Shown: positions 2,978 to 63,698 of the stretch, in pieces
How the letters are laid out: the number at the start of each line of letters is the position of its first letter
Position numbering within the stretch: the first letter of the stretch is position 1
Assembly: GCF_013315695.1 (NCBI RefSeq)
Contig: NZ_CP054356.1
Strand: one strand, 5' to 3'
From: Escherichia coli
Lineage (GTDB): Bacteria > Pseudomonadota > Gammaproteobacteria > Enterobacterales > Enterobacteriaceae
DNA: 64,000 bases
Made by a program: the position numbers and the translations under genes
The notes under the pieces: model-generated
Database searches by the model: none
What the model was told of the DNA's origin: nothing
What the model saw: the letters and a program-made list of their open reading frames with translations, nothing else

Positions 2978-2986
2978 TTGTTATCC

Positions 2987-15025: not shown

Positions 15026-15256
15026 TCTTTAAAAATCAGGATTTATTTCAGGCTCCGGCAATACGCATTTATGTGTTCTGTCAGTCATCCGGCTGGCAGG
15101 TAATGAAAACGCAGGAACAGAAGGAGGAAAACACCGGAAAGCGTCAGATGCAGATATGAAAAAAAGCAGGTCAGGGACCTGCTTAATCCACGCCGTAAGA
15201 ATTGTGCGACCAATTTTGACGGCATTGTTAACCAATTTGTCATAAGGAATCCATTT

Positions 15257-15487
15257 ATGACTGTAAGCATTGTTTCACCTTCCGCAGCGGCTGTAAAGCC
15301 CCGCCGTCATCCCCGTTTCAGACGCGAAGACATCCCCGCGCCGGAACTTGACCCCGTGCTGAAAGCCTTCGGGCGACACATTGCCCGGAGTTTTCGCCGG
15401 GGGCGTGGTGTACACATCCCCGCCATGAAAAACACGGCCTTCGGGCAGGTGCTCCGCACACTCGAACTGAAACGCGCTTTTAACTGA
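15257..15487 (+). CDS. Hypothetical small basic protein (76 aa, Arg-rich)
   Basis: RBS AAGGAA; first gene after family B copy 1; RRHPRFRRED..RSFRRGRG. Confidence 0.5.
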   Translation: MTVSIVSPSAAAVKPRRHPRFRREDIPAPELDPVLKAFGRHIARSFRRGRGVHIPAMKNTAFGQVLRTLELKRAFN

Positions 15488-22403: not shown

Positions 22404-22559
22404 TGCGGCAACAATCGCACAGATTACCCGTAAACAGCCTGAATGAGCGGGTTATTTTCAGGAAAAGTGAGTGTGGTCAGCGTGCAGGTATATGGGCTAT
22501 GATGTGCCCGGCGCTTGAGGCTTTCTGCCTCATGACGTGAAGGTGGTTTGTTACCGTGT

Positions 22560-22640
22560 TGTGTGGCAGAAAGAAGATAGCCCCGTAGTAAGTTAATTTT
22601 CATTAACCACCACGAGGCATCCCTATGTCTAGTCCACATC
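22560..22640 (-). ncRNA. Putative sok/flmB-type antisense RNA (approximate)
   Basis: Inferred from hok/mok architecture: antisense to mok leader; boundaries not determined. Confidence 0.3.
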
Positions 22641-22837
22641 AGGATAGCCTCTTACCGCGCTTTGCGCAAGGAGAAGAAGGCCATGAAACTACCACGAAGT
22701 TCCCTTGTCTGGTGTGTGTTGATCGTGTGTCTCACACTGTTGATATTCACTTATCTGACACGAAAATCGCTGTGCGAGATTCGTTACAGAGACGGACACA
22801 GGGAGGTGGCGGCTTTCATGGCTTACGAATCCGGTAA
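22625..22837 (+). CDS. mok: mok-like modulator-of-killing reading frame overlapping hok
   Basis: 70-aa ORF overlapping the hok frame, as in hok/sok and flm loci. Confidence 0.6.
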
Positions 22838-24981: not shown

Positions 24982-25030
24982 TAATATAAGTAAAGCCCCG
25001 AAAAATTTTTCGGGGCTTTACTTATATTAT
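24981..25030. terminator. Perfect 50-bp palindrome (bidirectional terminator candidate) between convergent genes
   Basis: ATAATATAAGTAAAGCCCCGAAAAA / TTTTTCGGGGCTTTACTTATATTAT. Confidence 0.65.
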
Positions 25031-25789: not shown

Positions 25790-26195
25790 TTCCACCTCTG
25801 GTGACTTTATCCGTAAATAATTTAACCTACTCCACAAAAAGGCTCAACAGGTTGGTGGTTCTCACCACCAAAAGCACCACACCCCACGCAAAAACAATTT
25901 TTTGCTGATTTTTCTTTATAAATAGAGTGTTATGAAAAATTAGTTTCTCTTACTCTCTTTATGATATTTAAAAAAGCGGTGTCGGCGCGGCTACAACAAC
26001 GCGCCGACACCGCTTTGTAGGGGTGGTACTGACTATTTTTATAAAAAACATCATTTTATATTAGGGGCGCTGCTAGCGGCGCGGTGTGTTTTTTTATAGG
26101 ATACCGCTAGGGGCGCTGCTAGCGGTGCGTCCCTGTTTGTATTATGAATTTTAGTGTTCCGAAATTAACTTTATTTTATGTTCAAAAAAGGTAAT
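25790..26195 (-). other. oriT: Origin of transfer oriT (F/R100-type); nic predicted on minus strand near 25878/25879
   Basis: Plus strand carries reverse complement of the F nic region (..CCAAAAGCACC|ACACCCCACGC..), adjacent inverted repeat GGTGGTTCTCACCACC, A/T-rich tracts, hairpin GCGGTGTCGGCGCG..CGCGCCGACACCGC, repeated AGGGGCGCTGCTAGCGG motifs (TraM-site candidates). Confidence 0.8.
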
Positions 26196-26200
26196 CTCTA

Positions 26201-26584
26201 ATGGCTAAGGTGAACCTGTATATCAGCAATGATGCCTATGAAAAAATAAATTCGATTATTGAGAAGCGTCGACAGGAAGGGGCAAGGGAAAAAGATGTCA
26301 GTTTTTCAGCAACAGCTTCAATGCTTCTTGAACTGGGGCTTCGTGTATATGAGGCTCAGATGGAGCGTAAAGAGTCTGCATTTAATCAGACTGAGTTTAA
26401 TAAATTGCTTCTTGAATGCGTTGTAAAAACACAATCATCAGTAGCGAAAATTTTGGGTATTGAGTCTCTCAGTCCTCATGTCTCCGGAAATCCAAAGTTT
26501 GAATATGCCAATATGGTTGAAGATATCAGGGAGAAGGTATCATCTGAGATGGAACGATTTTTTCCAAAAAATGATGATGAATAA
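26201..26584 (+). CDS. traM: Relaxosome protein TraM
   Basis: 127 aa MAKVNLYISNDAYEKINSIIEKRRQEGAREKDVSFSATASMLLELGL.. matches TraM. Confidence 0.95.
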   Translation: MAKVNLYISNDAYEKINSIIEKRRQEGAREKDVSFSATASMLLELGLRVYEAQMERKESAFNQTEFNKLLLECVVKTQSSVAKILGIESLSPHVSGNPKFEYANMVEDIREKVSSEMERFFPKNDDE

Positions 26585-26692
26585 AAGAAATTTGACTTCG
26601 TTCAAATATCAGAGTTTTTATGATTTAAAAAGGTGACAGTACGAAAGATAATTAGTATATTAATTACGTGGTTAATGCCACGTTAAAATTTG

Positions 26693-26775
26693 AATTTGAA
26701 AATCGCCGATGCAGGGAGTTCTCTCCTCCCCGCATCGACTGTCCATAGAATCCTTTGTGAGGAGGTTCCTATGTA
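26693..26775 (-). ncRNA. finP: FinP antisense RNA (approximate)
   Basis: Antisense to traJ leader/RBS; two stem-loops (e.g. CGATGCAGGGAG..CTCCCCGCATCG) and minus-strand U-tail (plus GAATTTGAAAATC). Confidence 0.6.
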
Positions 26776-27460
26776 TCCGATGGATCGTATTCAACAAAAA
26801 CATGCTCGTCAAATAGATCTGCTGGAAAATCTGACGGCAGTTATTCAGGATTATCCAAATCCAGCCTGTATCAGGGACGAAACTGGAAAATTTATTTTTT
26901 GCAATACGCTGTTTCATGAGTCATTTCTTACACAAGATCAAAGTGCTGAAAAATGGCTTCTGTCGCAGAGAGATTTTTATGAATTGATCTCTGTCACAGA
27001 GATGGAAGCATACAGGAATGAGCATACGCATCTTAATCTTGTAGAGGATGTTTTTATTCAGAACAGATTCTGGACAATATCTGTCCAGTCATTTCTTAAT
27101 GGACACAGAAATATTATTCTGTGGCAATTTTATGATGCTGCTCATGTTCGTCATAAAGACAGTTATAATCAAAAAACGATTGTCAGTGATGATATCAGAA
27201 ATATAATCAGAAGAATGAGTGATGATTCTTCTGTATCATCATATGTAAATGATGTATTTTACTTATATAGCACCGGAATCAGTCATAATGCTATAGCAAG
27301 AATATTAAACATATCCATCTCCACATCAAAGAAACACGCATCTCTGATATGCGACTACTTCTCTGTTTCTAATAAAGATGAGTTAATCATCTTACTCTAC
27401 AATAAAAAGTTTATTCATTATTTATACGAGAAGGCTATGTGTATCATAAATATGCGTTAA
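26771..27460 (+). CDS. traJ: Transfer operon activator TraJ
   Basis: ATG with RBS GAGGAGG; MYPMDRIQQKHARQIDLLENL..; track ORF extends upstream to 26690. Confidence 0.85.
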   Translation: MYPMDRIQQKHARQIDLLENLTAVIQDYPNPACIRDETGKFIFCNTLFHESFLTQDQSAEKWLLSQRDFYELISVTEMEAYRNEHTHLNLVEDVFIQNRFWTISVQSFLNGHRNIILWQFYDAAHVRHKDSYNQKTIVSDDIRNIIRRMSDDSSVSSYVNDVFYLYSTGISHNAIARILNISISTSKKHASLICDYFSVSNKDELIILLYNKKFIHYLYEKAMCIINMR

Positions 27461-27558
27461 TAAAGTGTTAATAAAATATAGACTTTCCGTCTATTTACCT
27501 TTTCTGATTATTCTGCAAACATAAGTGGTAACCAGAAGATAAACAGCGGGAGGTGTTA

Positions 27559-27954
27559 TTGAAAAGATTTGGTACACGTTCTGCAACAGGTAAGATGGTA
27601 AAACTAAAATTACCTGTAGATGTGGAAAGTCTATTAATTGAGGCAAGTAACAGAAGCGGAAGAAGTCGATCGTTTGAGGCAGTAATAAGACTTAAAGATC
27701 ATCTTCACCGCTATCCAAAGTTTAACAGGGCAGGAAATATCTATGGTAAGTCGCTGGTTAAGTATCTGACAATGCGTCTGGATGATGAAACTAACCAGCT
27801 ACTTATTGCAGCAAAAAATCGTAGTGGATGGTGTAAAACAGATGAGGCTGCAGACAGAGTTATTGATCATTTGATCAAGTTTCCTGATTTTTATAACTCG
27901 GAGATATTCAGGGAGGCAGATAAAGAGGAAGATATAACATTTAATACACTCTAG
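27559..27954 (+). CDS. traY: Relaxosome accessory protein TraY
   Basis: Ribbon-helix-helix protein (..FGTRSATGKMVKLKLPVDVESLL..); probable TTG start at 27559 after RBS GGGAGG (track: 27553). Confidence 0.85.
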   Translation: MKRFGTRSATGKMVKLKLPVDVESLLIEASNRSGRSRSFEAVIRLKDHLHRYPKFNRAGNIYGKSLVKYLTMRLDDETNQLLIAAKNRSGWCKTDEAADRVIDHLIKFPDFYNSEIFREADKEEDITFNTL

Positions 27955-46209: not shown

Positions 46210-49028
46210 ATGAAGTCTATGTGATTGCCGGTGGTGAGTGGTTAAGCAATAACCTGAACGCCATTGCCGCCTTTATGGGGACCCGGACGTGGGATTCCAT
46301 CGAAAAAATTGCGCTCACATTGTCTGTTCTCGCGGTGGCCGTGATGTGGGTACAGCGGCACAACGTGATGGATTTGCTGGGCTGGGTGGCCGTGTTTGTG
46401 CTTATCAGCCTGCTGGTTAATGTCCGTACATCGGTGCAGATTATTGATAACAGTGACCTGGTCAAAGTTCACCGGGTGGATAATGTGCCGGTCGGACTGG
46501 CGATGCCACTTTCACTGACGACCCGTATCGGGCATGCAATGGTGGCCAGTTACGAGATGATATTCACCCAGCCGGACAGTGTCACCTACAGCAAAACGGG
46601 GATGCTGTTCGGCGCAGAACTGGTATCAAAAAGCACCGACTTTTTGTCCCGCAATCCGGAAATCGCCAATCTTTTTCAGGATTATGTGCAGAACTGTGTG
46701 ATGGGGGATATTTACCTGAACCACAAATACACGCTGGAGGAGCTGATGGCCTCCGCTGATCCCTACACGCTGATTTTTTCCCGCCCCAGTCCGCTGCGGG
46801 GCGTTTACGACAGCAATAATAATTTCGTGACCTGTAAGGACGCGTCGGTTTCGCTGAAAGACAAGCTGAATCTGGACACACAGAGTGGCGGAAAAACCTG
46901 GCATTATTATGCCCAGCAGTTATTTGGTGGTCGCCCTGATCCGAACCTGTTGTTCAGTACGCTGATTGGCGACAGTTACAGTTACTTCTATGGCTCAAGT
47001 AAATCAGCCAGCCAGATCATCCGCCAGAATGTCACCATCAATGCGCTGAAGGAGGGGATCACCAGTTATGCCGCACGTAATGGTGATTCGGCCAGCCTGG
47101 TGAATCTGGCCACCACATCATCGATGGAGAAGCAACGTCTGGCACATGTCTCCATCGGTCATGTGGCGATGCGGACACTGCCCATGACGCAGACCATCCT
47201 GACGGGGATCGCCATCGGTATTTTCCCGCTCCTGGTACTGGCGGCTGTCTTCAACAAACTGACGCTGTCCGTCCTGAAAGGCTATGTGTTTGCCCTGATG
47301 TGGTTGCAGTCATGGCCAATGTTGTACGCCATTCTGAACAGTGCCATGACATTTTATGCGAAGCAGAACGGTGCACCGGTGGTGCTCTCAGAAATTTCAC
47401 AGATACAGCTGAAATACTCCGATCTGGCTTCCACTGCCGGGTATCTTTCCATGATGATCCCGCCATTATCCTGGATGATGGTCAGGGGACTCGGGGCCGG
47501 ATTTTCCAGTGTGTACAGCCATTTCGCTTCCTCTGCTATCAGCCCGACCGCCAGTGCGGCAGGCAGTGTGGTTGACGGTAATTACTCCTACGGCAACATG
47601 CAGACGGAAAACGTGAACGGCTTCAGCTGGAGCACCAACAGCACCACGTCGTTTGGTCAGATGATGTACCAGACCGGCAGTGGCGCAACTGCCACACAGA
47701 CCCGTGACGGTAATATGGTGATGGATGCGAGCGGGGCGATGTCCCGGTTACCGGTTGGTATCAATGCAACGCGTCAGATTGCAGCGGCACAACAGGAAAT
47801 GGCCCGGGAGGCGTCGAACAGAGCAGAAAGCGCCCTGCATGGGTTCAGCAGCAGTATTGCCAGTGCCTGGAACTCGCTCAGCCAGTTTGGTTCTAACCGG
47901 GGGAGCAGTGATTCTGTCACAGGTGGTGCTGACAGCACGATGAGCGCACAGGACTCCATGATGGCCAGCCGTATGCGCAGTGCAGTGGAAAGCTATGCGA
48001 AGGCGCATAATATCAGTAATGAGCAGGCGACTCAGGAACTGGCATCCAGAAGTACGAGAACTTCTGCCGGGATGTATGGAGATGCTCATGCTGAATGGGG
48101 GGTTAAACCTAAAATTCTTGGTGTTGGTGGAGGATTAGGCGTTAGAGGTGGTGGTCGGGCTGGTATTGATTGGGAAGATAATGATGCGCATACGGCAAGT
48201 AGTAATACTCAGTCGAGCCATAATGCTCGTCATGATATCGATGCCAGAGCTACACAAGACTTTAAAGAGGCCAGCGATTACTTTACCAGTCGCAAGGTCA
48301 GTGAGTCCGGCAGCCATACTGACAATAATGCTGATTCCCGTGTGGATCAGTTGTCTGCAGCCCTGAATTCAGCGAAGCAGAGTTACGACCAGTACACGAC
48401 GAATATGACCCGCAGCCATGAATATGCTGAAATGGCATCCCGTACTGAAAGCATGAGTGGGCAGATGAGTGAAGACCTGTCGCAACAGTTTGCACAGTAT
48501 GTAATGAAACACGCGCCACAGGATGCAGAAGCTATTCTGACAAACACCAGTTCACCGGAGATTGCAGAACGTCGTCGGGCGATGGCCTGGTCTTTTGTGC
48601 AGGAACAGGTACAGCCTGGTGTTGATAATGCCTGGCGGGAATCCCGTGGTGATATTGGTAAAGGAATGGAGAGCGTACCTTCGGGTGGTGGCAGTCAGGA
48701 TATTATTGCTGACCATCAGGGACATCAGGCCATTATTGAGCAAAGAACGCAGGACAGTAATATCCGTAATGATGTAAAACATCAGGTTGATAATATGGTC
48801 ACAGAATATAAAGGGAATATAGGTGATACTCAGAACAGCGTACGTGGCGAGGAAAATATTGTAAGAGGACAGTATTCTGAACTGCAGAATCACCATAAAA
48901 CAGAGGCATTATCTCAGAATAATAAATATAATGAAGAAAAGTCGGCTCAGGAAAGAATGCCCGGGGCTGACAGTCCACAGGAACTTATGAAAAGGGCAAA
49001 GGAATATCAGGATAAGTATAAGCAATAA
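46206..49028 (+). CDS. traG: Mating-pair stabilisation / entry-exclusion protein TraG
   Basis: 940 aa, N-terminal multi-TM domain and large periplasmic domain. Confidence 0.92.
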   Translation: MNEVYVIAGGEWLSNNLNAIAAFMGTRTWDSIEKIALTLSVLAVAVMWVQRHNVMDLLGWVAVFVLISLLVNVRTSVQIIDNSDLVKVHRVDNVPVGLAMPLSLTTRIGHAMVASYEMIFTQPDSVTYSKTGMLFGAELVSKSTDFLSRNPEIANLFQDYVQNCVMGDIYLNHKYTLEELMASADPYTLIFSRPSPLRGVYDSNNNFVTCKDASVSLKDKLNLDTQSGGKTWHYYAQQLFGGRPDPNLLFSTLIGDSYSYFYGSSKSASQIIRQNVTINALKEGITSYAARNGDSASLVNLATTSSMEKQRLAHVSIGHVAMRTLPMTQTILTGIAIGIFPLLVLAAVFNKLTLSVLKGYVFALMWLQSWPMLYAILNSAMTFYAKQNGAPVVLSEISQIQLKYSDLASTAGYLSMMIPPLSWMMVRGLGAGFSSVYSHFASSAISPTASAAGSVVDGNYSYGNMQTENVNGFSWSTNSTTSFGQMMYQTGSGATATQTRDGNMVMDASGAMSRLPVGINATRQIAAAQQEMAREASNRAESALHGFSSSIASAWNSLSQFGSNRGSSDSVTGGADSTMSAQDSMMASRMRSAVESYAKAHNISNEQATQELASRSTRTSAGMYGDAHAEWGVKPKILGVGGGLGVRGGGRAGIDWEDNDAHTASSNTQSSHNARHDIDARATQDFKEASDYFTSRKVSESGSHTDNNADSRVDQLSAALNSAKQSYDQYTTNMTRSHEYAEMASRTESMSGQMSEDLSQQFAQYVMKHAPQDAEAILTNTSSPEIAERRRAMAWSFVQEQVQPGVDNAWRESRGDIGKGMESVPSGGGSQDIIADHQGHQAIIEQRTQDSNIRNDVKHQVDNMVTEYKGNIGDTQNSVRGEENIVRGQYSELQNHHKTEALSQNNKYNEEKSAQERMPGADSPQELMKRAKEYQDKYKQ

Positions 49029-51299: not shown

Positions 51300-53525
51300 A
51301 TGAGTTTTAACGCAAAGGATATGACCCAGGGCGGTCAGATTGCGTCCATGCGTATCCGCATGTTCAGCCAGATCGCCAATATCATGCTTTACTGCCTGTT
51401 TATTTTTTTCTGGATACTCGTTGGTCTGATTTTATGGGTAAAAATAAGCTGGCAGACGTTTGTGAACGGCTGTATTTACTGGTGGTGTACCACGCTGGAA
51501 GGCATGCGGGATTTAATCAAGTCCCAGCCAGTATATGAGATCCAGTATTACGGCAAAACCTTCCGGATGAACGCTGCCCAGGTACTGCATGATAAATATA
51601 TGATCTGGTGCGGAGAGCAGCTATGGTCCGCATTCGTTCTGGCCACAGTTGTGGCACTGGTTATTTGCCTGATCACCTTCTTTGTTGTCTCCTGGATTCT
51701 GGGGCGTCAGGGTAAACAACAGAGCGAAAATGAAGTCACAGGTGGTCGTCAGCTGACAGACAATCCGAAAGACGTTGCCCGGATGCTGAAAAAAGACGGC
51801 AAGGACTCCGATATCCGGATTGGCGACCTGCCGATTATCCGGGATTCCGAAATCCAGAACTTCTGTCTGCACGGCACGGTCGGGGCCGGTAAGTCGGAGG
51901 TTATCCGTCGTCTGGCCAACTATGCCCGTCAGCGCGGTGATATGGTGGTGATTTATGACCGTTCAGGGGAATTTGTTAAAAGTTACTATGATCCCTCCAT
52001 CGATAAAATCCTGAATCCGCTGGATGCCCGCTGTGCCGCATGGGATTTGTGGAAGGAGTGCCTGACACAGCCGGATTTTGATAATACCGCAAATACTCTG
52101 ATCCCTATGGGTACAAAAGAGGACCCGTTCTGGCAGGGTTCAGGACGTACCATTTTTGCGGAAGCGGCGTACCTGATGCGTAATGACCCCAACCGCAGCT
52201 ACAGCAAACTGGTGGACACACTGCTTTCCATCAAAATTGAAAAACTGCGTACCTTCCTGCGTAATTCACCGGCAGCCAACCTGGTGGAAGAGAAAATTGA
52301 GAAAACGGCGATTTCCATCCGTGCTGTGCTGACCAACTACGTGAAAGCCATCCGTTACCTGCAGGGGATTGAGCATAACGGTGATCCCTTCACCATCCGT
52401 GACTGGATGCGTGGTGTCCGGGAAGATCAGAAAAACGGCTGGCTGTTTATTTCGTCGAACGCCGACACCCATGCCTCCCTGAAGCCTGTGATCTCCATGT
52501 GGCTGTCCATTGCCATTCGTGGTCTGCTGGCAATGGGAGAAAACCGTAACCGTCGTGTGTGGTTTTTCTGTGATGAGTTACCCACGTTACACAAACTGCC
52601 GGATCTGGTGGAGATCCTGCCGGAAGCCCGTAAGTTCGGTGGCTGTTATGTGTTTGGTATCCAGTCCTATGCCCAGCTGGAAGATATCTACGGTGAGAAA
52701 GCGGCGGCCACGCTGTTTGACGTCATGAACACCCGTGCTTTTTTCCGTTCCCCGAGCCATAAGATTGCAGAGTTCGCTGCCGGTGAGATTGGTGAGAAAG
52801 AGCACCTGAAAGCCAGCGAGCAGTATTCCTACGGTGCTGACCCGGTACGTGACGGGGTATCGACCGGTAAGGATATGGAGCGTCAGACGCTGGTCAGTTA
52901 TTCCGACATTCAGTCTCTGCCGGATCTGACCTGCTATGTCACTCTGCCCGGACCGTATCCGGCAGTCAAACTCTCTCTGAAATATCAGGCACGACCGAAG
53001 GTCGCTCCGGAGTTTATTCCGCGTGACATCAACCCGGAAATGGAGAACCGTCTGAGTGCCGTACTTGCCGCAAGGGAAGCAGAAGGTCGTCAGATGGCCA
53101 GCCTCTTTGAACCGGAGGTTGCCTCCGGAGAAGATGTGACTCAGGCTGAACAGCCACAACAGCCACAACAGCCACAACAGCCACAACAGCCACAACAGCC
53201 ACAACAGCCACAACAGCCACAACAGCCACAACAGCCACAACAGCCAGTGTCTTCTGTCATCAATGATAAGAAGTCAGATGCAGGTGTGAGTGTTCCGGCA
53301 GGGGGGATCGAGCAGGAGCTGAAAATGAAACCGGAAGAAGAGATGGAACAGCAACTGCCACCCGGGATCAGTGAATCCGGTGAAGTGGTGGATATGGCCG
53401 CTTATGAGGCATGGCAACAGGAAAATCATCCGGACATCCAGCAGCATATGCAGCGTCGTGAAGAGGTGAACATTAATGTGCACCGGGAGCGCGGGGAGGA
53501 TGTTGAGCCGGGAGATGATTTCTGA
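51300..53525 (+). CDS. traD: Type IV coupling protein TraD
   Basis: 741 aa; Walker A GTVGAGKS; C-terminal QPQ repeats. Confidence 0.95.
53151..53246 (+). repeat. Tandem 9-bp repeat (CAGCCACAA)x10 encoding (QPQ)n in TraD C-terminal tail
   Basis: Ten perfect tandem units visible at 53151-53240. Confidence 0.9.
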
Positions 53526-56500
53526 TGTTGAGTTTCAGCGTTGTTAAATCGGCAGGCAGTGCCGGAAACTATTACACCGACAAGGATAATTACTATGTGC
53601 TGGGCAGCATGGGAGAACGCTGGGCTGGTCAGGGGGCTGAACAGCTTGGGCTGCAGGGCAGCGTCGATAAGGATGTTTTTACCCGTCTTCTGGAGGGCAG
53701 GCTGCCGGACGGGGCGGATTTAAGCCGCATGCAGGATGGCAGTAATAAGCATCGTCCCGGCTACGACCTGACCTTCTCCGCCCCCAAAAGTGTCTCCATG
53801 ATGGCCATGCTCGGGGGGGATAAACGTCTTATTGATGCACATAACCAGGCCGTGGATTTTGCTGTCCGTCAGGTGGAGGCGCTGGCTTCCACACGGGTGA
53901 TGACGGACGGACAGTCAGAAACGGTGCTGACCGGTAATCTGGTGATGGCACTGTTTAACCATGACACCAGTCGCGATCAGGACCCACAGTTACACACGCA
54001 TGTAGTGGTGGCTAATGTCACGCAGCATAACGGCGAGTGGAAGACACTGAGCAGTGACAAAGTGGGGAAAACCGGATTTTCCGAGAACGTGCTAGCGAAC
54101 CGGATTGCGTTCGGGAAAATATATCAGAGTGAGTTACGTCAGCGCGTTGAGGCGCTGGGTTATGAAACCGAAGTGGTCGGTAAGCACGGTATGTGGGAGA
54201 TGCCGGGCGTACCGGTGGAGGCCTTTTCCAGTCGTTCACAGGCTATCAGGGAGGCCGTCGGTGAAGACGCCTCGCTGAAATCCCGGGATGTGGCGGCACT
54301 GGATACGCGAAAATCCAAACAGCACGTCGATCCGGAAATCAGAATGGCTGAATGGATGCAGACGCTGAAGGAAACCGGGTTCGACATCCGGGCATATCGT
54401 GACGCGGCGGATCAGCGTGCGGAGATCCGCACGCAGGCGCCCGGGCCTGCTTCACAGGACGGGCCGGATGTGCAGCAGGCGGTGACACAGGCGATTGCCG
54501 GATTAAGTGAACGAAAAGTGCAGTTCACGTATACGGACGTGCTGGCCAGGACGGTCGGCATACTGCCGCCGGAAAATGGTGTGATTGAACGGGCACGCGC
54601 CGGTATCGATGAGGCCATCAGCCGTGAGCAGCTTATCCCCCTCGACCGTGAGAAGGGGCTGTTCACATCAGGAATTCATGTGCTCGATGAGCTGTCCGTC
54701 CGGGCACTCAGTCGTGACATCATGAAACAGAACCGGGTGACCGTACATCCGGAGAAAAGTGTCCCCCGGACGGCTGGTTACAGCGATGCGGTCAGTGTTC
54801 TGGCACAGGACCGTCCGTCGCTGGCCATTGTGTCCGGGCAGGGCGGTGCAGCCGGGCAGCGTGAGCGGGTGGCTGAACTGGTCATGATGGCCCGGGAGCA
54901 GGGGCGGGAGGTGCAGATTATCGCTGCTGACCGTCGCTCGCAGATGAACCTGAAGCAGGATGAACGGCTGTCCGGTGAGCTGATAACCGGACGTCGTCAG
55001 CTGCAGGAGGGCATGGTCTTCACGCCGGGCAGTACTGTTATCGTCGACCAGGGCGAAAAACTCTCCCTGAAAGAGACGTTAACCCTGCTGGACGGTGCCG
55101 CACGTCATAACGTACAGGTCCTGATAACCGACAGCGGGCAGCGAACCGGTACAGGCAGTGCGCTGATGGCCATGAAGGATACCGGGGTGAACACGTATCG
55201 CTGGCAGGGCGGAGAACAGCGACCGGCAACCATCATCAGTGAACCGGACCGGAATGTCCGCTATGACCGGCTGGCCGGAGATTTTGCGGCCAGCGTGAAA
55301 GCCGGAGAAGAGAGCGTGGCACAGGTCAGCGGGGTACGGGAACAGGCCATACTGACACAGGCCATTCGCAGTGAGCTGAAAACACAGGGCGTGCTCGGAC
55401 ACCCGGAGGTGACCATGACCGCCCTGTCACCGGTCTGGCTGGACAGCCGGAGCCGTTATCTGCGGGATATGTACCGACCGGGGATGGTGATGGAGCAGTG
55501 GAACCCGGAGACACGCAGTCATGACCGCTATGTTATCGACCGGGTGACGGCGCAGAGTCACAGCCTGACCCTGCGGGATGCGCAGGGCGAAACGCAGGTG
55601 GTGCGTATTTCCTCCCTGGACAGCAGCTGGTCGCTGTTCCGGCCGGAAAAAATGCCGGTGGCAGACGGCGAGCGACTGAGGGTGACAGGGAAAATTCCCG
55701 GACTCCGCGTCTCCGGCGGTGACCGCCTGCAGGTGGCATCCGTCAGTGAAGATGCGATGACGGTTGTTGTGCCGGGGCGGGCTGAACCGGCCACCCTGCC
55801 TGTGGCTGATTCACCGTTCACGGCACTGAAGCTGGAGAACGGCTGGGTGGAAACGCCCGGGCATTCCGTCAGTGACAGTGCGACGGTGTTTGCCTCCGTC
55901 ACACAGATGGCAATGGACAACGCCACCCTGAACGGTCTGGCCCGCAGCGGTCGTGATGTCCGGCTGTATTCCTCACTGGATGAAACCCGTACTGCGGAAA
56001 AACTTGCCCGCCATCCCTCCTTTACGGTGGTTTCTGAGCAGATAAAGGCGCGGGCCGGTGAGACATCGCTGGAAACCGCTATCAGTCTGCAGAAAACCGG
56101 GCTGCACACGCCGGCACAGCAGGCCATTCATCTGGCCCTTCCTGTGCTGGAAAGTAAAAACCTGGCCTTCAGCATGGTGGACCTGCTGACAGAGGCGAAG
56201 TCGTTTGCTGCAGAAGGAACCGGTTTTACTGAACTGGGAGGGGAAATCAATGCGCAGATAAAACGCGGTGACTTACTGTATGTGGATGTGGCAAAAGGCT
56301 ATGGCACAGGCCTGCTGGTTTCCCGTGCGTCGTATGAGGCAGAAAAAAGTATTCTTCGCCATATTCTCGAAGGTAAGGAGGCGGTCACGCCGCTGATGGA
56401 GAGAGTACCCGGCGAACTCATGGAGACGTTAACGTCGGGACAGCGTGCCGCCACCCGTATGATACTGGAAACGTCCGACCGTTTCACGGTGGTACAGGGT

Positions 56501-58795
56501 TATGCCGGTGTGGGTAAGACCACACAGTTCCGGGCGGTGATGTCAGCCGTGAACATGCTGCCGGCGAGTGAGCGTCCCCGAGTTGTGGGGCTGGGGCCCA
56601 CGCACCGTGCGGTCGGTGAGATGCGCAGCGCCGGCGTGGATGCACAGACGCTGGCGTCCTTTCTGCATGACACGCAGCTGCAGCAGCGCAGCGGAGAAAC
56701 GCCGGATTTCAGCAACACGCTGTTCCTGCTCGATGAGAGCTCAATGGTGGGCAATACCGACATGGCACGGGCATACGCCCTGATTGCGGCCGGTGGCGGT
56801 CGTGCCGTGGCCAGTGGTGACACGGACCAGCTGCAGGCCATCGCGCCCGGTCAGCCTTTCCGTCTCCAGCAGACGCGCAGTGCTGCCGATGTGGTCATCA
56901 TGAAGGAGATTGTGCGTCAGACGCCGGAACTGCGGGAGGCGGTATACAGCCTGATTAACCGGGATGTGGAAAGGGCACTGTCCGGGCTTGAGAGTGTGAA
57001 ACCGTCTCAGGTTCCCCGTCAGGAGGGCGCATGGGCACCGGAGCACTCCGTGACGGAGTTCAGTCACAGCCAGGAAGCGAAACTGGCAGAAGCGCAGCAG
57101 AAGGCGATGCTGAAAGGTGAGACTTTTCCGGATGTCCCCATGACACTGTATGAAGCCATTGTCCGCGACTATACCGGCAGGACACCGGAAGCACGGGAGC
57201 AGACGCTGATTGTCACGCACCTGAATGAGGACCGGCGCGTACTGAACAGCATGATTCATGATGCACGGGAAAAGGCCGGTGAGCTGGGGAAAGAGCAGGT
57301 CATGGTGCCTGTCCTGAACACAGCGAATATACGTGACGGGGAGCTGCGTCGTCTCTCCACCTGGGAGAATAACCCGGATGCCCTTGCCCTGGTGGATAGT
57401 GTGTATCACCGGATTGCCGGTATCAGCAAGGATGACGGGCTGATAACCCTGGAGGATGCGGAAGGTAACACGCGGCTGATTTCGCCCCGGGAGGCGGTGG
57501 CTGAAGGTGTCACACTGTACACCCCGGACAAAATCCGGGTGGGGACCGGCGACCGGATGCGCTTCACGAAGAGTGACCGGGAGCGCGGTTATGTGGCCAA
57601 CAGCGTCTGGACGGTGACAGCGGTTTCCGGTGACAGTGTCACGCTGTCAGACGGACAGCAGACCCGGGTGATTCGCCCCGGCCAGGAGCGGGCAGAGCAA
57701 CATATTGACCTGGCTTATGCCATCACCGCCCACGGTGCGCAGGGGGCGAGTGAAACCTTTGCCATCGCGCTTGAAGGCACGGAAGGTAACCGGAAACTGA
57801 TGGCCGGCTTTGAGTCAGCCTACGTGGCCCTGTCGCGTATGAAGCAGCATGTGCAGGTGTACACCGATAACCGTCAGGGCTGGACGGATGCCATTAACAA
57901 TGCCGTACAGAAAGGAACTGCCCACGATGTGCTGGAGCCGAAACCGGACCGGGAGGTCATGAATGCGCAGCGGCTGTTCAGTACGGCACGGGAACTGCGG
58001 GACGTGGCGGCAGGCCGTGCCGTTCTCCGTCAGGCAGGGCTGGCCGGGGGAGACAGCCCTGCACGGTTTATTGCACCGGGACGTAAATATCCGCAGCCGT
58101 ATGTGGCACTGCCGGCGTTTGACCGTAACGGCAAGTCAGCTGGTATCTGGCTGAACCCACTGACCACGGATGACGGAAACGGGCTGCGGGGATTCAGTGG
58201 TGAAGGACGGGTGAAAGGCAGCGGGGATGCGCAGTTCGTGGCCCTGCAGGGCAGCCGTAACGGAGAGAGCCTGCTGGCTGATAATATGCAGGATGGCGTC
58301 CGGATTGCCCGTGATAATCCTGACAGCGGTGTGGTGGTGAGAATTGCCGGTGAAGGTCGTCCGTGGAATCCCGGTGCCATCACCGGTGGCCGCGTGTGGG
58401 GGGATATCCCGGATAACAGCGTCCAGCCGGGGGCCGGAAATGGCGAACCGGTCACGGCAGAGGTACTGGCACAGCGGCAGGCTGAAGAGGCCATCCGCCG
58501 TGAAACGGAACGCCGCGCAGATGAAATTGTCAGGAAAATGGCAGAGAACAAACCTGACCTGCCGGATGGCAAAACAGAGCTGGCTGTCAGGGATATTGCC
58601 GGACAGGAGCGTGACCGGTCTGCCATATCTGAACGGGAAACCGCACTGCCGGAGAGTGTGCTGCGTGAATCACAACGGGAGCGGGAAGCGGTCCGGGAGG
58701 TTGCCCGGGAAAATCTGCTGCAGGAGCGTCTGCAGCAGATGGAGCGGGATATGGTTCGTGACCTGCAGAAAGAGAAAACCCTGGGCGGAGACTGA
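53525..58795 (+). CDS. traI: Relaxase/helicase TraI
   Basis: 1756 aa; N-terminal relaxase (..SAGSAGNYYTDKDNYYVLGS.. HTHVVVANV), helicase Walker A GYAGVGKT; matches recalled F TraI. Confidence 0.97.
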   Translation: MLSFSVVKSAGSAGNYYTDKDNYYVLGSMGERWAGQGAEQLGLQGSVDKDVFTRLLEGRLPDGADLSRMQDGSNKHRPGYDLTFSAPKSVSMMAMLGGDKRLIDAHNQAVDFAVRQVEALASTRVMTDGQSETVLTGNLVMALFNHDTSRDQDPQLHTHVVVANVTQHNGEWKTLSSDKVGKTGFSENVLANRIAFGKIYQSELRQRVEALGYETEVVGKHGMWEMPGVPVEAFSSRSQAIREAVGEDASLKSRDVAALDTRKSKQHVDPEIRMAEWMQTLKETGFDIRAYRDAADQRAEIRTQAPGPASQDGPDVQQAVTQAIAGLSERKVQFTYTDVLARTVGILPPENGVIERARAGIDEAISREQLIPLDREKGLFTSGIHVLDELSVRALSRDIMKQNRVTVHPEKSVPRTAGYSDAVSVLAQDRPSLAIVSGQGGAAGQRERVAELVMMAREQGREVQIIAADRRSQMNLKQDERLSGELITGRRQLQEGMVFTPGSTVIVDQGEKLSLKETLTLLDGAARHNVQVLITDSGQRTGTGSALMAMKDTGVNTYRWQGGEQRPATIISEPDRNVRYDRLAGDFAASVKAGEESVAQVSGVREQAILTQAIRSELKTQGVLGHPEVTMTALSPVWLDSRSRYLRDMYRPGMVMEQWNPETRSHDRYVIDRVTAQSHSLTLRDAQGETQVVRISSLDSSWSLFRPEKMPVADGERLRVTGKIPGLRVSGGDRLQVASVSEDAMTVVVPGRAEPATLPVADSPFTALKLENGWVETPGHSVSDSATVFASVTQMAMDNATLNGLARSGRDVRLYSSLDETRTAEKLARHPSFTVVSEQIKARAGETSLETAISLQKTGLHTPAQQAIHLALPVLESKNLAFSMVDLLTEAKSFAAEGTGFTELGGEINAQIKRGDLLYVDVAKGYGTGLLVSRASYEAEKSILRHILEGKEAVTPLMERVPGELMETLTSGQRAATRMILETSDRFTVVQGYAGVGKTTQFRAVMSAVNMLPASERPRVVGLGPTHRAVGEMRSAGVDAQTLASFLHDTQLQQRSGETPDFSNTLFLLDESSMVGNTDMARAYALIAAGGGRAVASGDTDQLQAIAPGQPFRLQQTRSAADVVIMKEIVRQTPELREAVYSLINRDVERALSGLESVKPSQVPRQEGAWAPEHSVTEFSHSQEAKLAEAQQKAMLKGETFPDVPMTLYEAIVRDYTGRTPEAREQTLIVTHLNEDRRVLNSMIHDAREKAGELGKEQVMVPVLNTANIRDGELRRLSTWENNPDALALVDSVYHRIAGISKDDGLITLEDAEGNTRLISPREAVAEGVTLYTPDKIRVGTGDRMRFTKSDRERGYVANSVWTVTAVSGDSVTLSDGQQTRVIRPGQERAEQHIDLAYAITAHGAQGASETFAIALEGTEGNRKLMAGFESAYVALSRMKQHVQVYTDNRQGWTDAINNAVQKGTAHDVLEPKPDREVMNAQRLFSTARELRDVAAGRAVLRQAGLAGGDSPARFIAPGRKYPQPYVALPAFDRNGKSAGIWLNPLTTDDGNGLRGFSGEGRVKGSGDAQFVALQGSRNGESLLADNMQDGVRIARDNPDSGVVVRIAGEGRPWNPGAITGGRVWGDIPDNSVQPGAGNGEPVTAEVLAQRQAEEAIRRETERRADEIVRKMAENKPDLPDGKTELAVRDIAGQERDRSAISERETALPESVLRESQREREAVREVARENLLQERLQQMERDMVRDLQKEKTLGGD

Positions 58796-59615: not shown

Positions 59616-60173
59616 ATGACAGAGCAGAAGCGACCGGTACTGACACTGAAGCGGAAAACGGAAGGGGAGACGCCTGTCCGCAGGCGGAAAACCATCATCA
59701 ATGTCACCACGCCACCAAAGTGGAAGGTGAAAAAGCAGAAGCTGGCCGAGAAAGCAGCCCGGGAAGCGGAGCTGGCGGCAAAAAAAGCGCAGGCCAGACA
59801 GGCGCTGTCCATTTATCTGACGCTGCCCTCGCTGGATGAGGCGGTGAACACTCTGAAACCCTGGTGGCCGGGATTGTTTGACGGTAACACGCCCAGGCTT
59901 CTTGCCTGTGGTATCCGGGAGGTTTTACTGGATGAGGTGTTTCAGCGGAATATCCCGCTCTCTCATAAAAAACTCAGCCGGGCGCTGAAAGCTATCACCC
60001 GTTCGGAAAGTTATCTGTGTGCAATGAAAGCCGGCGCCTGCCGCTATGATACGGAAGGCTATGTGACAGAACATATCACACAGGAAGAAGAACAGTATGC
60101 GCAGGCGCGCCTGGAAAAGGTGCGCAGACAGAACCGGATCAAGGATGAGCTGCGGGCGATCCTGGCGGAATAA
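59616..60173 (+). CDS. finO: Fertility inhibition RNA chaperone FinO (apparently intact)
   Basis: 185 aa basic protein [59 protein letters not shown].. Confidence 0.92.
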
Positions 60174-60324
60174 AAGAGCCCTCTGTATGACAGAGGGCAA
60201 CAGCGAGAAAAAATCGGGAAAACAGAAATCCAGAGTTTTGATGGAGAAAACACCCAACCGTTCAGGGATGTTTCAGAATGTTTCTGACATAATCCGGGAG
60301 CCGGGTCAAGAGGGGGGATAAAAA

Positions 60325-60528
60325 ATGGCTGTATCCAGTGGATTATCTGAGCACAGCGGTATTTATCGCTATCAGCGCGTGGGGCGTCATGCCGTCCGTC
60401 AGGAGATTCGTGGTTTTTTCAGGGAAGCCGCTGAGGCCTGGCAGAATGCGGCCCGGCTGGCACCCTGTGAAGCATGGCGGGATTTTGCCCTGAAGAGGGC
60501 ATCTGCATGCCGGTGTAAGTGCCGATAA
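60325..60528 (+). CDS. Hypothetical small protein (67 aa)
   Basis: ORF with RBS AGAGGGGGGA; no family assigned. Confidence 0.35.
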   Translation: MAVSSGLSEHSGIYRYQRVGRHAVRQEIRGFFREAAEAWQNAARLAPCEAWRDFALKRASACRCKCR

Positions 60529-61269
60529 AAATAACCCCCGTCGCGGAGCTCCGGGGGATCAGGCTTATATGGCAGATCGTTATTATTATAGTGGTGTAAG
60601 AAGGAGTTGCCCTGTCTTTCAAACGGACATCACAGAGTTAACATATTTCACATCCCGGGTAAGCCAGCAGGGATAAAAAATGTGATGAATTTCAAGAAGC
60701 AGAAGGTGACAGTAGCATGCATAACAGTACGGTTATGTCCGGTGAATCTGACAGACAGCCGGGCTGTATTCGCGGCAGGATAAAGAAAAACCGGGAGATG
60801 ACTCTCCCGGTCCGTCTTATCGCTAATCCCCTGAGCAGGGCATGTATGACTTATCTATGACCGTTATATTCAGCGCCACATCCGGTAGCCTGCGATATAA
60901 CACAGTTATCCTATCAGTAAGAGCAGGTATGATGAATACACGGAGATTAAAAATATAATCTCCGTCACATGTTACCCCCGGAAACCGGTAACGCCGTCAC
61001 GGGAAATACGTGACAGAAAAAGCAGCCTCCGTTACTCCAGGTATCAGAAGGCTGAATAATGCATGAGACTTTGTTTCTTATGTGTCTGGTCAGGCTGGCT
61101 GACCAGCGTTTTTAGTAACACATAGCCATATGTGTATTAAGCCACCTCATCTTATTTTGTCGAATTGATCACAATTCAACGGTTTATTTTTGGCGTGATA
61201 CGTGAGCCGTTATTCATCCCGGCATGGAATTCATGCAATCACGAAAAGTAATCAGTGACGGAGAGTAAA

Positions 61270-61731
61270 ATGAAGAAATATATACCAGTGGTATTATTTG
61301 TTTTTTCATGTCAGGTATTTTCTGCTGATATTCATGGACGGGTTGTGCGTGTTCTGGATGGTGATACCATTGACGTCATGTTATCTCAGCATCCGGTGCG
61401 TGTCCGTCTTGTTAATATTGATGCACCTGAAAAGAAACAGGACTATGGCCGGTGGTCTGAAAAAATAATGAAATCTCTGATTGCGGGAAAAACGGTTACT
61501 GTCACATATTTTCAGCGAGATCGTTATGGTCGTATTCTCGGGCAGGTTTATGCACCAGACGGAATGAATGTTAATCATTTTATGGTCCGTGCAGGCGCTG
61601 CATGGGTTTATGAGCAGTACAACACCGATCCTGTTCTTCCCGTCCTGCAGGGAGAAGCACGACAGCAGAAACGTGGTCTGTGGGCAGACAGCGCTCCTGT
61701 TCCGCCCTGGGTATGGCGCTCACGGAAATAA
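61270..61731 (+). CDS. nuc: Secreted thermonuclease-family (SNase-like) endonuclease
   Basis: Signal peptide MKKYIPVVLFVFSCQVFSA; motifs VRVLDGDTIDV, VRLVNIDAPE, RYGRILGQV, GLW typical of SNase fold. Confidence 0.85.
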   Translation: MKKYIPVVLFVFSCQVFSADIHGRVVRVLDGDTIDVMLSQHPVRVRLVNIDAPEKKQDYGRWSEKIMKSLIAGKTVTVTYFQRDRYGRILGQVYAPDGMNVNHFMVRAGAAWVYEQYNTDPVLPVLQGEARQQKRGLWADSAPVPPWVWRSRK

Positions 61732-61818
61732 TGATATTTCTGTGGCTATTGAGTTCTCATTGAAATGCGATATTTAAAAGCATGAAGCATATTACATTAT
61801 TAACTTATTTCTCTGTTA

Positions 61819-62218
61819 ATGAAAGGTGAACAAATGAACTATCAGGCAGTATCAGAATTAATCACATCGTCTAATCATAATGTTCTTATAGTGTGGGACT
61901 CAGCTTCTGAAGTTGATGGTTTTTTAAATAAACTGAATATCACTGATTATAAGTATTATGATTTCAGCCAGATTTACAGTTGTTCTGACAGAACATTAAA
62001 TGATTATGCGGTTATTTTTTATCAGGGATGCACTGAACGCCAGTGAGCATATTATTATTTTAAATTGTACAGGATGGCCTGATTTGAATAATGAATCTGC
62101 CGTCATGCAGTTTGCCAGAGTGGCACGAAAATCAGGAAAACAACTGATAGTCGCAGTAAGAGAACAGGATATGAAAAAAATGGAAGCAGAGTCTGGAAGG
62201 ATCATAAAAATCCACTGA
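61819..62218 (+). pseudogene. Frameshifted paralog of ORF 62371-62808 (two overlapping ORF fragments 61819-62046 and 62000-62218)
   Basis: Fragment 1 aligns to N-terminal half and fragment 2 to C-terminal half of the intact paralog (..SEHIIILNCTGWPDLNNESAVMQFARVARKSGKQLIVAV..); frame change near T-run around 62020. Confidence 0.6.
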
Positions 62219-62370: not shown

Positions 62371-62808
62371 ATGAAATATGATGATGTGTCAGAATTGATG
62401 ATTAAATGTGAACACAACATTCTTATTGTTGGTAATACTTACTCCCGAGTTGATAATTTTTTTAAGGGGTATTCTGTACCAGATTCTAAATATTATGATT
62501 TCACTCAGATTAACAGTGATTCAGATGCAGAGAGAAATGATCATGCCGTCTCCTTTATCAGGGATGCAATGAATAGTGAAGAGCATATAATTATTTTTAA
62601 TTGTGTTGGGTGGCCTGATTTAGGTGGTGGATCAGCAGTATCGCAGTTTGCAATGATGGCCAGAAAATTTGGTAAACAACTTATTGTCGCTGTAAGTGAA
62701 AAGGATGCCATAAAATTAAAAGACAACTTTAATATTATTGGAACGTTGTCATATGGTAAAGAAAATTTTATTGCCATGAGCCATACGAAAAGCGAGTTCT
62801 GTAGTTAA
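62371..62808 (+). CDS. Hypothetical protein (145 aa), intact paralog of the upstream frameshifted gene
   Basis: ORF with conserved ..IIIFNCVGWPDLGGGSAVSQFAMMARKFGKQLIVAV.. core; AT-rich. Confidence 0.6.
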   Translation: MKYDDVSELMIKCEHNILIVGNTYSRVDNFFKGYSVPDSKYYDFTQINSDSDAERNDHAVSFIRDAMNSEEHIIIFNCVGWPDLGGGSAVSQFAMMARKFGKQLIVAVSEKDAIKLKDNFNIIGTLSYGKENFIAMSHTKSEFCS

Positions 62809-62950
62809 AAGCGGGAAATGGAGGTAATGGTCAGCAACAGGGAATGTGGTATTATCGCGGCGGGTGTCTGAGCCTTTCTGGTTCAGGCAAGACGCAGGTA
62901 CCAGAAATGCGAAGACCCCACTTGTTAATCCATTAACTCGTGAGGCCTGC

Positions 62951-63010
62951 ATGAAGTACGTAGCACTACTGATTGTAGCCTCTTCCTTGCAGAGAGGTCA
63001 AAGTTTATGA
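62951..63010 (+). CDS. pndC/mok-like leader reading frame (19 aa) translationally coupled to toxin gene
   Basis: ATG 62951; stop TGA overlaps toxin ATG (ATGA); architecture as in pnd/srnB loci. Confidence 0.5.
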   Translation: MKYVALLIVASSLQRGQSL

Positions 63011-63156
63011 CGAAATATACCCTTATCGGGTTGCTCGCCGTGTGCGCCACGGTGTTGTGTTTTTCACTGATATTCAGGGAACGGTTATGTGAGCTGAATA
63101 TTCACAGGGGAAATACAGTGGTGCAGGTAACTCTGGCCTACGAAGCACGGAAGTAA
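63007..63156 (+). CDS. pndA: Hok-family toxin PndA/SrnB-like, 49 aa; below ORF-track size cut-off
   Basis: Translation MTKYTLIGLLAVCATVLCFSLIFRERLCELNIHRGNTVVQVTLAYEARK; matches recalled PndA/SrnB core. Confidence 0.88.
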   Translation: MTKYTLIGLLAVCATVLCFSLIFRERLCELNIHRGNTVVQVTLAYEARK

Positions 63157-63440: not shown

Positions 63441-63698
63441 ATGTCGCAGACAGTAAATGCAGAGACTTCCTCATCGGGAAAAAAACGACCTTACAGAAGG
63501 GGTAATCCTGTTCCTGCGAGAGAACGACAAAAAGCGTCTCTTGCAAGAAGGAGTGCCACTCATAAAGCGTTTCATGCCGTCATTCAGCTTCGACTGAAAG
63601 AAAAGTTAAGTGAGCTTGCTGATGAAGACGGGATCACTCAGGCACAGATGCTTGAGTGGCTGATAGAGTCAGAGGTTAAGCGCAGAAAATCTTTGTGA
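63441..63698 (+). CDS. copB: RepFII copy-number repressor CopB (RepA2)
   Basis: 85 aa [37 protein letters not shown].. resembles recalled CopB/RepA2. Confidence 0.85.

Follow-up and report, generated by a model that had tools for sequence, protein, structure and literature searches.

AS-pc02 is listed in Rfam as RF02876, with the description 'Antisense to pHK01_099', and is recorded there as an antisense transcript from pHK01, an IncFII plasmid; its primary description is cited in PMC11980398 as Jiang et al. 2017 (FEMS Microbiol Ecol 93:fix090), and RT-PCR with canonical-sequence primers has detected the RNA in vesicles from an STEC strain (PMC12370729). The gene to which it is antisense encodes an ANR family protein and carries the older annotation yigA, the gene order in plasmid pS88 being finO-yigA-yigB-repA2 (PMC3438092). 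Canonical copies of AS-pc02 score 170-205 bits and comprise 81 nt of intergenic DNA together with the last 104 nt of the ANR open reading frame (ORF), as in the plasmid sequence L003, where AS-pc02 occupies 2894-3078 and the ANR coding sequence 2785-2997; the 3' end of these copies does not lie at an obvious terminator. In the majority arrangement finO is followed by the gene for a transcriptional regulator of the ANR family (70 aa), then by an intergenic stretch of ~245 bp and nuc, with the conserved segment beginning 1-4 nt after the ANR stop codon. The antisense RNAs FinP, CopA and Sok of F-like plasmids overlap the translation start region of their targets, and their functions are proven.

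Here we describe the corresponding region in a 64,000-nt stretch of an F-like conjugative plasmid of Escherichia coli (hereafter the window), elsewhere in which FinP, CopA and Sok are all present. The genes around the region of interest all lie on the plus strand, in the order traI (53525-58795), traX, finO (59616-60173), a 67-aa yigA-type ORF (60325-60528) and a thermonuclease-family gene, nuc (61271-61732), 3' of which are found two small ORFs, hok/sok, repA2 (63441-63698) and CopA. A preliminary description of this DNA had placed a nuclease gene 3' of the gap, in agreement with the annotation of identical plasmids as encoding a thermonuclease family protein (CDS 4971-5432 of L001). The yigA-type ORF, which forms the left border of the gap, is a divergent allele of the ANR family: it shares 48% amino acid identity (E = 2e-14) with the ANR family regulator common in F-like plasmids, and scores 29 bits against the NCBIfam model ANR_neg_reg, for which the cut-off is 32. 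Between this ORF and nuc lie ~742 bp of non-coding DNA. Dozens of E. coli plasmids of 64-212 kb are 100% identical to the window over 60300-61400, and in these the gap is unannotated. Our analysis identifies the gap as a non-coding spacer with strong predicted terminators, joined to a conserved start of AS-pc02, and as a real but fairly ordinary feature of the plasmid.

Comparison with the finO-repA intervals of other F-like plasmids, as the preliminary description had proposed, proved the most informative approach. Homology to the canonical arrangement at the DNA level extends over 60288-60500 (59% identity) and 61010-61287 (66% identity) with none between, indicating that 60529-61010 is extra relative to the majority arrangement. 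The gap thus has two parts, a lineage-specific, non-coding spacer of ~480 bp (60529-61010) and a conserved backbone part (61010-61270) that contains the 5' end of AS-pc02 on the minus strand, a terminator-like hairpin (T3) on the plus strand, and the promoter and ribosome-binding region of nuc. A sensitive DNA search of 72,556 plasmid records found 3,556 that match some of the gap and only 234 that match most of it, the others aligning solely over ~125 bp (61016-61141) at 72-89% identity. The spacer itself occurs in 251 of the 72,556 records, equivalent to ~7% of F-like plasmids with the core; NZ_CP024888.1 and p1303_109 are examples of plasmids with the cassette. Among 5,426 complete E. coli genomes it is found in 219, nearly always plasmid-borne. 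The variant yigA/ANR allele is present at an amino acid identity of at least 90% in 244 plasmid records, all other plasmid matches falling below 60%; the shared distribution of allele and spacer indicates that together they form one cassette.

Relatives of the spacer are few. A piece of 270-290 bp, comprising the 3' end of yigA, the hairpin designated T1 below and the next ~150-170 bp, occurs at 80-83% identity in another plasmid type, where it sits between hok and aphA; the copy in CP069530 keeps the core of the T1 stem. Phages contained no relatives, and neither did a collection with a single genome for each species, searched with a 21-mer that both known versions share; a metagenome scan returned 30 contigs that all carry these same two versions and no further types. 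The spacer is present once per plasmid, with no further copy in the window, and only 6 of its 228 places are on E. coli chromosomes. An origin as a MITE or insertion sequence remnant was considered and rejected, as no inverted repeat bounds 60529 and 61010 and there are no dispersed copies.

The preliminary description had suggested that the region could hold small RNAs, terminators or a decayed gene. The first two proposals find support, from Rfam homology and from prediction respectively (see below), but the third does not. The spacer contains 11-16 stop codons per frame per 247 codons, and a clade at 96-97% differs from the window by two indels, one of +3 (TTA) at 60579 and one of -2 at 60736-60737, the latter of which breaks both a 58-aa and a 47-aa ORF. 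Substitutions among spacer variants show no third-position bias, the spacer has no match in Pfam or NCBIfam, and concatenated six-frame segments of at least 20 aa have none in 5.8 billion protein clusters. Because every frame is interrupted by stop codons, indels disrupt the frames and no related protein was found, we do not regard the spacer as a decayed gene. The statement that 60530-61260 contains no ORF of at least 60 aa holds on the ORF listing; a TTG-initiated 67-aa ORF on the minus strand (60419-60622), antisense to yigA and with no Pfam or NCBIfam family match, overlaps the first 93 nt of that interval.

The region around the ribosome-binding site and start of yigA (60301-60335) recurs on the plus strand as an imperfect 35-nt copy at 60654-60690, which includes the exact 13-mer GGGATAAAAAATG; its local alignment score of 33.5 was reached by none of 300 shuffles (21.0 +/- 2.6), and a stop codon follows directly. 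We rejected the idea that this represents a second, decayed yigA, since similarity past the 35 nt is not significant (p = 0.10-0.27), and tblastn with four ANR proteins recovered the intact yigA ORF only. This copied translation start might be taken as a sign that the spacer once was, or still contains, a small unannotated protein-coding gene, as might the annotation here of the 47-aa ORF by one depositor. A further candidate is a type I toxin-like ORF of 26 aa (60519-60599) with a hydrophobic tail ending LIWQIVIIIVV, inside which the sole indel among variants is the +3 nt; in a toxin-antitoxin version it would lie opposite a minus-strand RNA of ~50 nt running to T1 from a perfect TATAAT (60590-60585), situated 28 nt upstream of the T1 hairpin. 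The coding evidence above nevertheless makes either kind of gene very improbable: the yigA similarity is limited to 35 nt, the +3 indel reflects slippage within a stretch of (TTA)n, and no Rfam toxin-antitoxin family matches at E <= 1. The 26-aa toxin was itself discarded, because it lacks a Shine-Dalgarno sequence and any Rfam or Pfam support, and a hydrophobic stretch of 11-13 residues would not suffice for a membrane helix.

The hairpin-rich character reported for the interval is well founded. Each of the four hairpins quoted in the preliminary description was found at its given position, namely CCCCCG...CGGGGG (60535-60557), ACCGGGAGA-TGAC-TCTCCCGGT (60790-60811), ACGGAGATTA-AAAATA-TAATCTCCGT (60940-60965) and CTGGTCAG-GCTGG-CTGACCAG (61086-61106). 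Counting perfect hairpins with a stem of at least 6 and a loop of 3-12, the interval 60530-61260 contains 9, compared with 2.66 +/- 1.70 per 731-bp sliding window across the same 64 kb, and only 0.4% of such sliding windows reach this number. A comparable hairpin density is seen elsewhere in the 64 kb only in the oriT/traJ area near 26 kb. Relative to dinucleotide shuffles, folding gave z = -3.8 for the plus strand (751 nt) and z = -2.7 for the minus strand (581 nt), and the region 60100-61800 contains 6 terminator-like sites where shuffles contain 1.6 +/- 1.4.

Three of the hairpins (T1, T2 and T3) have the sequence characteristics of an intrinsic terminator, i.e. a GC-rich stem-loop and a U-rich tract. 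Two of these are oriented for the minus strand. T1 (60526-60557, -17.5 kcal/mol) consists of the first quoted hairpin, with six G-C pairs, followed by UUAUUUUUAU; its minus-strand U-tract, TTATTTTTAT, overlaps the yigA stop codon. T2 (60779-60813) has the form GGACCGGGAGAG-UCAU-CUCCCGGUUU followed by UUCUUUAU, with an 11-pair stem of -18.5 to -20.5 kcal/mol that is directly trailed on the minus strand by the U-rich sequence TTCTTTAT. In a ranking of terminator-like sites on both strands of the 64 kb, which returned 54 sites, T2 is listed fourth and is the third-strongest distinct hairpin; T1 was not captured by this ranking and is known from a separate terminator scan and from folding. A third minus-strand site (60178-60198, GCCCTCTGTCATACAGAGGGC TCTTTTATTC, -16.2 kcal/mol), seventh of the 54, lies just 3' of the finO stop codon, outside the coordinates of the preliminary description. 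Here too the U-tract is found exclusively on the minus strand, and the site comes last in a series of three minus-strand terminator-like sites. As the annotated genes are all on the plus strand, T1, T2 and the finO-proximal site can serve only unannotated minus-strand transcripts. The proposal that the region holds terminators is accordingly borne out at the level of prediction: of the nine strongest terminator-like sites in the 64 kb, three fall between finO and nuc.

Variation between plasmids bears on both sites within the spacer. In a comparison of 20 haplotypes drawn from plasmids and gut metagenomes, 5-9% of the positions in each segment show substitutions, the exception being 60758-60862 around T2, where there are none. 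Purifying selection on this 105-nt stretch is suggested, and suggested only, by a scan-corrected p of 0.06-0.10; the stretch could also be a recombination tract. At T1, a paired double substitution (60542 C>T with 60550 T>G) yields a U-G pair on the plus strand only, a hint that T1 may matter in plus-strand RNA.

The conserved right part of the gap contains the Rfam homology on which the small RNA proposal is based. AS-pc02 matches the minus strand at 60951-61093 with 53.5 bits (E = 3e-11), above the gathering score of 40, and this element of the preliminary description stands to that extent; true conservation is, however, limited to the 5' half. Homology covers only model positions 1 to ~85 of 185 (61093 to 61010, ~85 nt), beyond which the alignment has low posterior probability, a 38-nt deletion and unrelated spacer sequence, and nothing in the window is homologous to the 3' helices of the model. 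Because the homology stops at ~61010, 480 bp from the yigA stop codon (60528), the antisense overlap with the ANR gene is absent here. We mapped the 5' structure of the Rfam model on an alignment of 14 distinct sequences representing both arrangements. The 5' helices are 90.4% paired over these sequences, helix 2 only 67%, and two pairs are changed on both sides; covariation is modest, in that 17-23 of 500 shuffles do as well. In helix 4, two G-U pairs are invariant, additional G-U/U-G pairs occur and one A-U pair is exchanged for G-C; this helix cannot be formed on the plus strand. Since its G-U pairs would be C-A mismatches on the plus strand, the conserved structure appears to belong to a minus-strand RNA.

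Promoter evidence for such an RNA is limited. Sigma-70 promoter prediction found none inside the gap, and a position-weight scan found candidates at roughly background density, for which reason we claim no promoter as established. The putative AS-pc02 promoter (61112-61140, minus strand) consists of TTAATA, 17 nt and TACTAA, preceded by TGT, with a predicted start at ~61105; it is weak by consensus and its score of 7.3 is no better than background, but the block GTATTAAG...AGTA-CACA at this position is conserved in the alignment with canonical loci. The best promoter-like score of the region, 10.7, belongs to the plus strand, where a consensus TATAAT (60954-60959) lies in the AT-rich loop of H3, a perfect 10-bp hairpin corresponding to the third of those quoted. 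Two perfect 6-bp hairpins, H4 (GTTACC...GGTAAC, 60971-60992) and H5 (GTCACG...CGTGAC, 60996-61014), mark the right end of the spacer.

The fourth quoted hairpin, followed by CGTTTTT, is T3 (61086-61113), a plus-strand site with an 8-pair stem of -13.9 kcal/mol that ranks ninth of the 54 and inside which the AS-pc02 model starts. Its stem persists in divergent plasmids, with a compensatory C-G to T-A exchange at pair 2, and from its sequence and position T3 is likely to be the 3' end of yigA transcripts. As T1 has no plus-strand U-tract, transcripts of yigA should enter the spacer. It follows that the whole gap might be read as a long 3' UTR of the yigA mRNA, including read-through from tra and finO, in which the hairpins block 3' exonucleases or serve for processing, minus-strand transcription is irrelevant, and a 3'-UTR-derived small RNA possibly ends at T3, one candidate being an RNA of ~148 nt from the TATAAT in the H3 loop (start ~60966) to 61113. 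Such a reading, which we regard as unlikely, draws on the plus-strand orientation of the neighbouring genes, on T3 being the first good plus-strand terminator after yigA, on the stronger plus-strand folding score, on the plus-strand position of the best promoter-like site, on the plus-strand pairing retained by the T1 double substitution, and on a G-T pair in the canonical T3 stem that is tolerated on the plus strand only. It does not account for the orientation of T1, T2 and the finO-proximal hairpin, each of which has its U-tract on the minus strand, so that A-tracts precede the hairpins on the plus strand; this pattern fits a minus-strand terminator and has no role in a plus-strand stabiliser. 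Nor does it account for the invariant G-U pairs of the AS-pc02 helices, which exist on the minus strand only. The 3' UTR and the transcription boundary considered next are not mutually exclusive.

On balance, and with modest confidence, we favour the view that the gap is a transcriptional boundary, separating the tra-finO-yigA block from the nuc/hok/repA block, the in vivo use of its promoters and terminators being inferred from their sequences. On the plus strand, transcripts of yigA, together with read-through from tra and finO, would pass T1 and end at T3 (61113). On the minus strand, RNA initiated at the AS-pc02 promoter (~61100) would cross H5, H4 and H3 and end at T2, giving a transcript of ~315 nt; read-through past T2 would end at T1, exactly at the yigA stop codon, and the finO-proximal hairpin would provide a further back-up. 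The two minus-strand intrinsic terminators, T2 and T1, would then be the main functional content of the spacer cassette, and yigA, finO and the tra genes would be insulated from antisense transcription. If the minus-strand RNA is stopped before it reaches yigA and finO in this way, AS-pc02 is uncoupled here from its usual target.

A more specific proposal, that the cassette encodes at least one undescribed small RNA acting in trans on yigA or on the translation of nuc, is doubtful. One candidate would be the ~315-nt AS-pc02 derivative, or an RNA of ~160 nt starting from H3, with a new 3' domain ending at T2; another would be a short minus-strand RNA ending at T1. In either case cis-antisense control of yigA might have been replaced by base-pairing in trans, mediated by the 13 nt (60670-60682) complementary to the ribosome-binding site and start of yigA. 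A minus-strand RNA from T2 to T1 was evaluated in this role and rejected, its duplex energy with the yigA start region being no better than that of shuffles (p = 0.066). The alternative target would be nuc, whose ribosome-binding site, GTGACGGAGAGTAAA, and ATG at 61271 occupy 61255-61273: the 3' arm of H3 (60956-60968) is complementary to this ribosome-binding site at 12 of 13 positions, with a duplex energy of -21.7 kcal/mol that is reached by 0.1% of background windows.

The region upstream of nuc (61118-61177) contains two palindromes, ACACATA-GCCA-TATGTGT (61118-61135) and GAATTG-ATCA-CAATTC (61162-61177), and a degenerate CRP-like site, TGTCGAATTGATCACA (61158-61173), with 2 mismatches. 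In canonical plasmids the homologous place carries an exact TGTGA-N6-TCACA, the core of the CRP consensus. These features raise the question of whether the hairpins matter as DNA, that is as a recombination junction and protein-binding region, comprising nuc operators and cruciform-prone palindromes, at which cargo is exchanged and the RNA features are incidental. Related plasmids indeed have at least five different breakpoints inside the interval, at ~60589 (with type I restriction-modification genes next), at 60704-60730, at 60851 (adjoining an IS66 element) and at ~60930-60968 (followed by cirA), with the allele boundary at 61010 as a further one, and the palindromes lie where canonical plasmids have the exact CRP-type sequence. 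We nevertheless consider this explanation improbable. Breakpoints are to be expected in any non-essential intergenic DNA; the spacer is bounded by neither a recombinase or transposase gene nor terminal repeats, and, with so few chromosomal locations, is not a dispersed repeat; and the CRP-like site of the window, at 2 mismatches, is not beyond chance.

Were the boundary to operate as proposed, ~7% of F-like plasmids with this locus, including many found in clinical and STEC E. coli, would have an AS-pc02 that is disconnected from the ANR-family gene, and the set of terminators would keep antisense transcription out of the last part of the transfer operon. The locus would also offer a natural 'uncoupled' allele for testing the roles of AS-pc02 and of the plasmid ANR protein. 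For annotators, an Rfam AS-pc02 match here does not imply the antisense relationship expressed in the family name. Beyond the uncoupled AS-pc02 and the terminators, the region is ordinary plasmid intergenic DNA. Intrinsic terminators are a familiar kind of element, as are antisense RNAs of plasmids; we are aware of no earlier description of the spacer, but nothing in it would surprise a plasmid biologist.

Comparison with known systems places the locus as follows. The FinP/traJ, CopA/repA and Sok/hok pairs resemble it in consisting of short, structured minus-strand RNAs opposite plus-strand genes, with intrinsic terminators, but differ in that the RNA or RNAs predicted here would overlap no ORF. 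The canonical yigA(ANR)-yigB(nuc) region, represented by pSMS35_130 (NC_010488.1) and pNZRM4165, is closer: it has the same order finO - yigA - nuc, its DNA from the ANR stop codon to the nuc start is homologous (~66%), and a minus-strand terminator-like hairpin follows finO in both. It differs in the length of its gap (~245 bp as against 742 bp here), in its yigA protein, to which that of the window is 48% identical, and in the TGTGA-N6-TCACA element, which is exact there and degenerate here. The closest relative is AS-pc02 itself, with which the window copy shares its location on the minus strand between yigA/ANR and nuc, its start at the T3 hairpin, a score above the Rfam threshold and, it appears, 5' helices 1, 3 and 4 with their minus-strand-specific G-U pairs. 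In contrast to canonical copies, however, the 3' 100 nt antisense to the end of ANR are replaced by the unrelated spacer, and the ANR-like ORF lies 480 bp away behind two terminators, so that the antisense relationship for which the family is named is lost here. Having neither the ANR overlap nor the 3' half, the copy in the window is best regarded as a truncated, re-contextualised variant of AS-pc02 rather than as a regular member of the family.

The region immediately upstream of nuc, the thermonuclease-family gene that closes the non-coding gap (start 61271), differs between the two arrangements of this locus. In the canonical arrangement, i.e. that of the majority of F-like plasmids, an exact CRP-type palindrome (TGTGA-N6-TCACA) is present at 3145-3160 of locus L003 and at the homologous place in nine other loci, approximately 80-100 nt 5' to the start codon of nuc; its counterpart in the window (61158-61173) carries two mismatches. 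This palindrome suggests that the plasmid nuclease of canonical F-like plasmids is under catabolite control. A 1,170-bp metagenome contig (L038) is of the window type to approximately 61079 and contains the exact TGTGA-N6-TCACA beyond, and may be a recombinant of the two arrangements with its crossover inside the conserved core (61010-61270). Variation is also found at the place of window 61113, where three loci of the same clade (L010, L034 and L042) contain an 11-nt tandem duplication, AGTAACACATA, that immediately follows the U-tract of the predicted terminator-like hairpin T3 (61086-61113), within the putative promoter of the antisense RNA AS-pc02.

The nuc ribosome-binding site (61255-61270) lies 290 nt downstream of H3, a perfect 10-bp hairpin, and is complementary at 12 of 13 positions to the H3 3' arm (hairpin region 60940-60968), giving a duplex of -21.7 kcal/mol that 0.1% of background windows reach. 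The H3 5' arm in turn resembles the ribosome-binding site itself (ACGGAGATTAAAA vs ACGGAGAGTAAAA). This complementarity could represent an anti-Shine-Dalgarno arrangement or be due to chance.

H3 lies within the lineage-specific left part of the gap (the spacer, 60529-61010), at which cargo often joins, as seen in the compared loci L007 (pAST217_1), L009 and L035, L013, and L008. In these, type I restriction-modification genes follow from approximately window position 60589 and cirA from approximately 60930-60968, and IS66-family elements occur at 60851 and also within nuc at approximately 61276. Within the spacer, at 60654-60690, the translation start region of yigA (60301-60335) is also repeated imperfectly over 35 nt in direct orientation. 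This copy includes an exact GGGATAAAAAATG, is directly followed by a stop codon, and has a score reached by none of 300 shuffles.

The yigA ORF itself (60325-60528), at the left border of the gap, is a divergent allele of the ANR (AraC negative regulator) family, 48% identical to that of most F-like plasmids, and is labelled a hypothetical protein because its NCBIfam score is just under the cut-off (29 vs 32 bits). Plasmid ANR alleles are either at least 90% identical to the window allele (244 records) or less than 60% identical, with no intermediates. The 14 variable sites of the window-type allele are split 2/5/7 across codon positions, so that third-position bias is weak.

Elsewhere in the window, two small ORFs after nuc (75 and 72 aa; 61819-62218) jointly constitute one frameshifted tandem paralogue of the next ORF (145 aa, 62371-62808; 52% identity, E = 2e-43). 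The strongest terminator-like hairpin (24989-25022, -23.8 kcal/mol) is a 14-bp perfect palindrome, AGTAAAGCCCCGAAAAATTTTTCGGGGCTTTACT, symmetric on both strands. Three further Rfam AS-series antisense RNAs exceed threshold on the minus strand, i.e. AS-pc01 (15161-15262; barely, at 79.4 vs 79), AS-traG (46925-47010) and AS-traI (56374-56450). Two sok-type matches (22509-22685 and 62862-63017) indicate that the window has two hok/sok loci. Only one other region, 25950-27600, is as hairpin-rich as the gap (8-9 perfect hairpins per 731 bp), and the Rfam traJ 5' UTR and FinP matches inside it (26666-26777) identify it as the oriT/traM/traJ control region.
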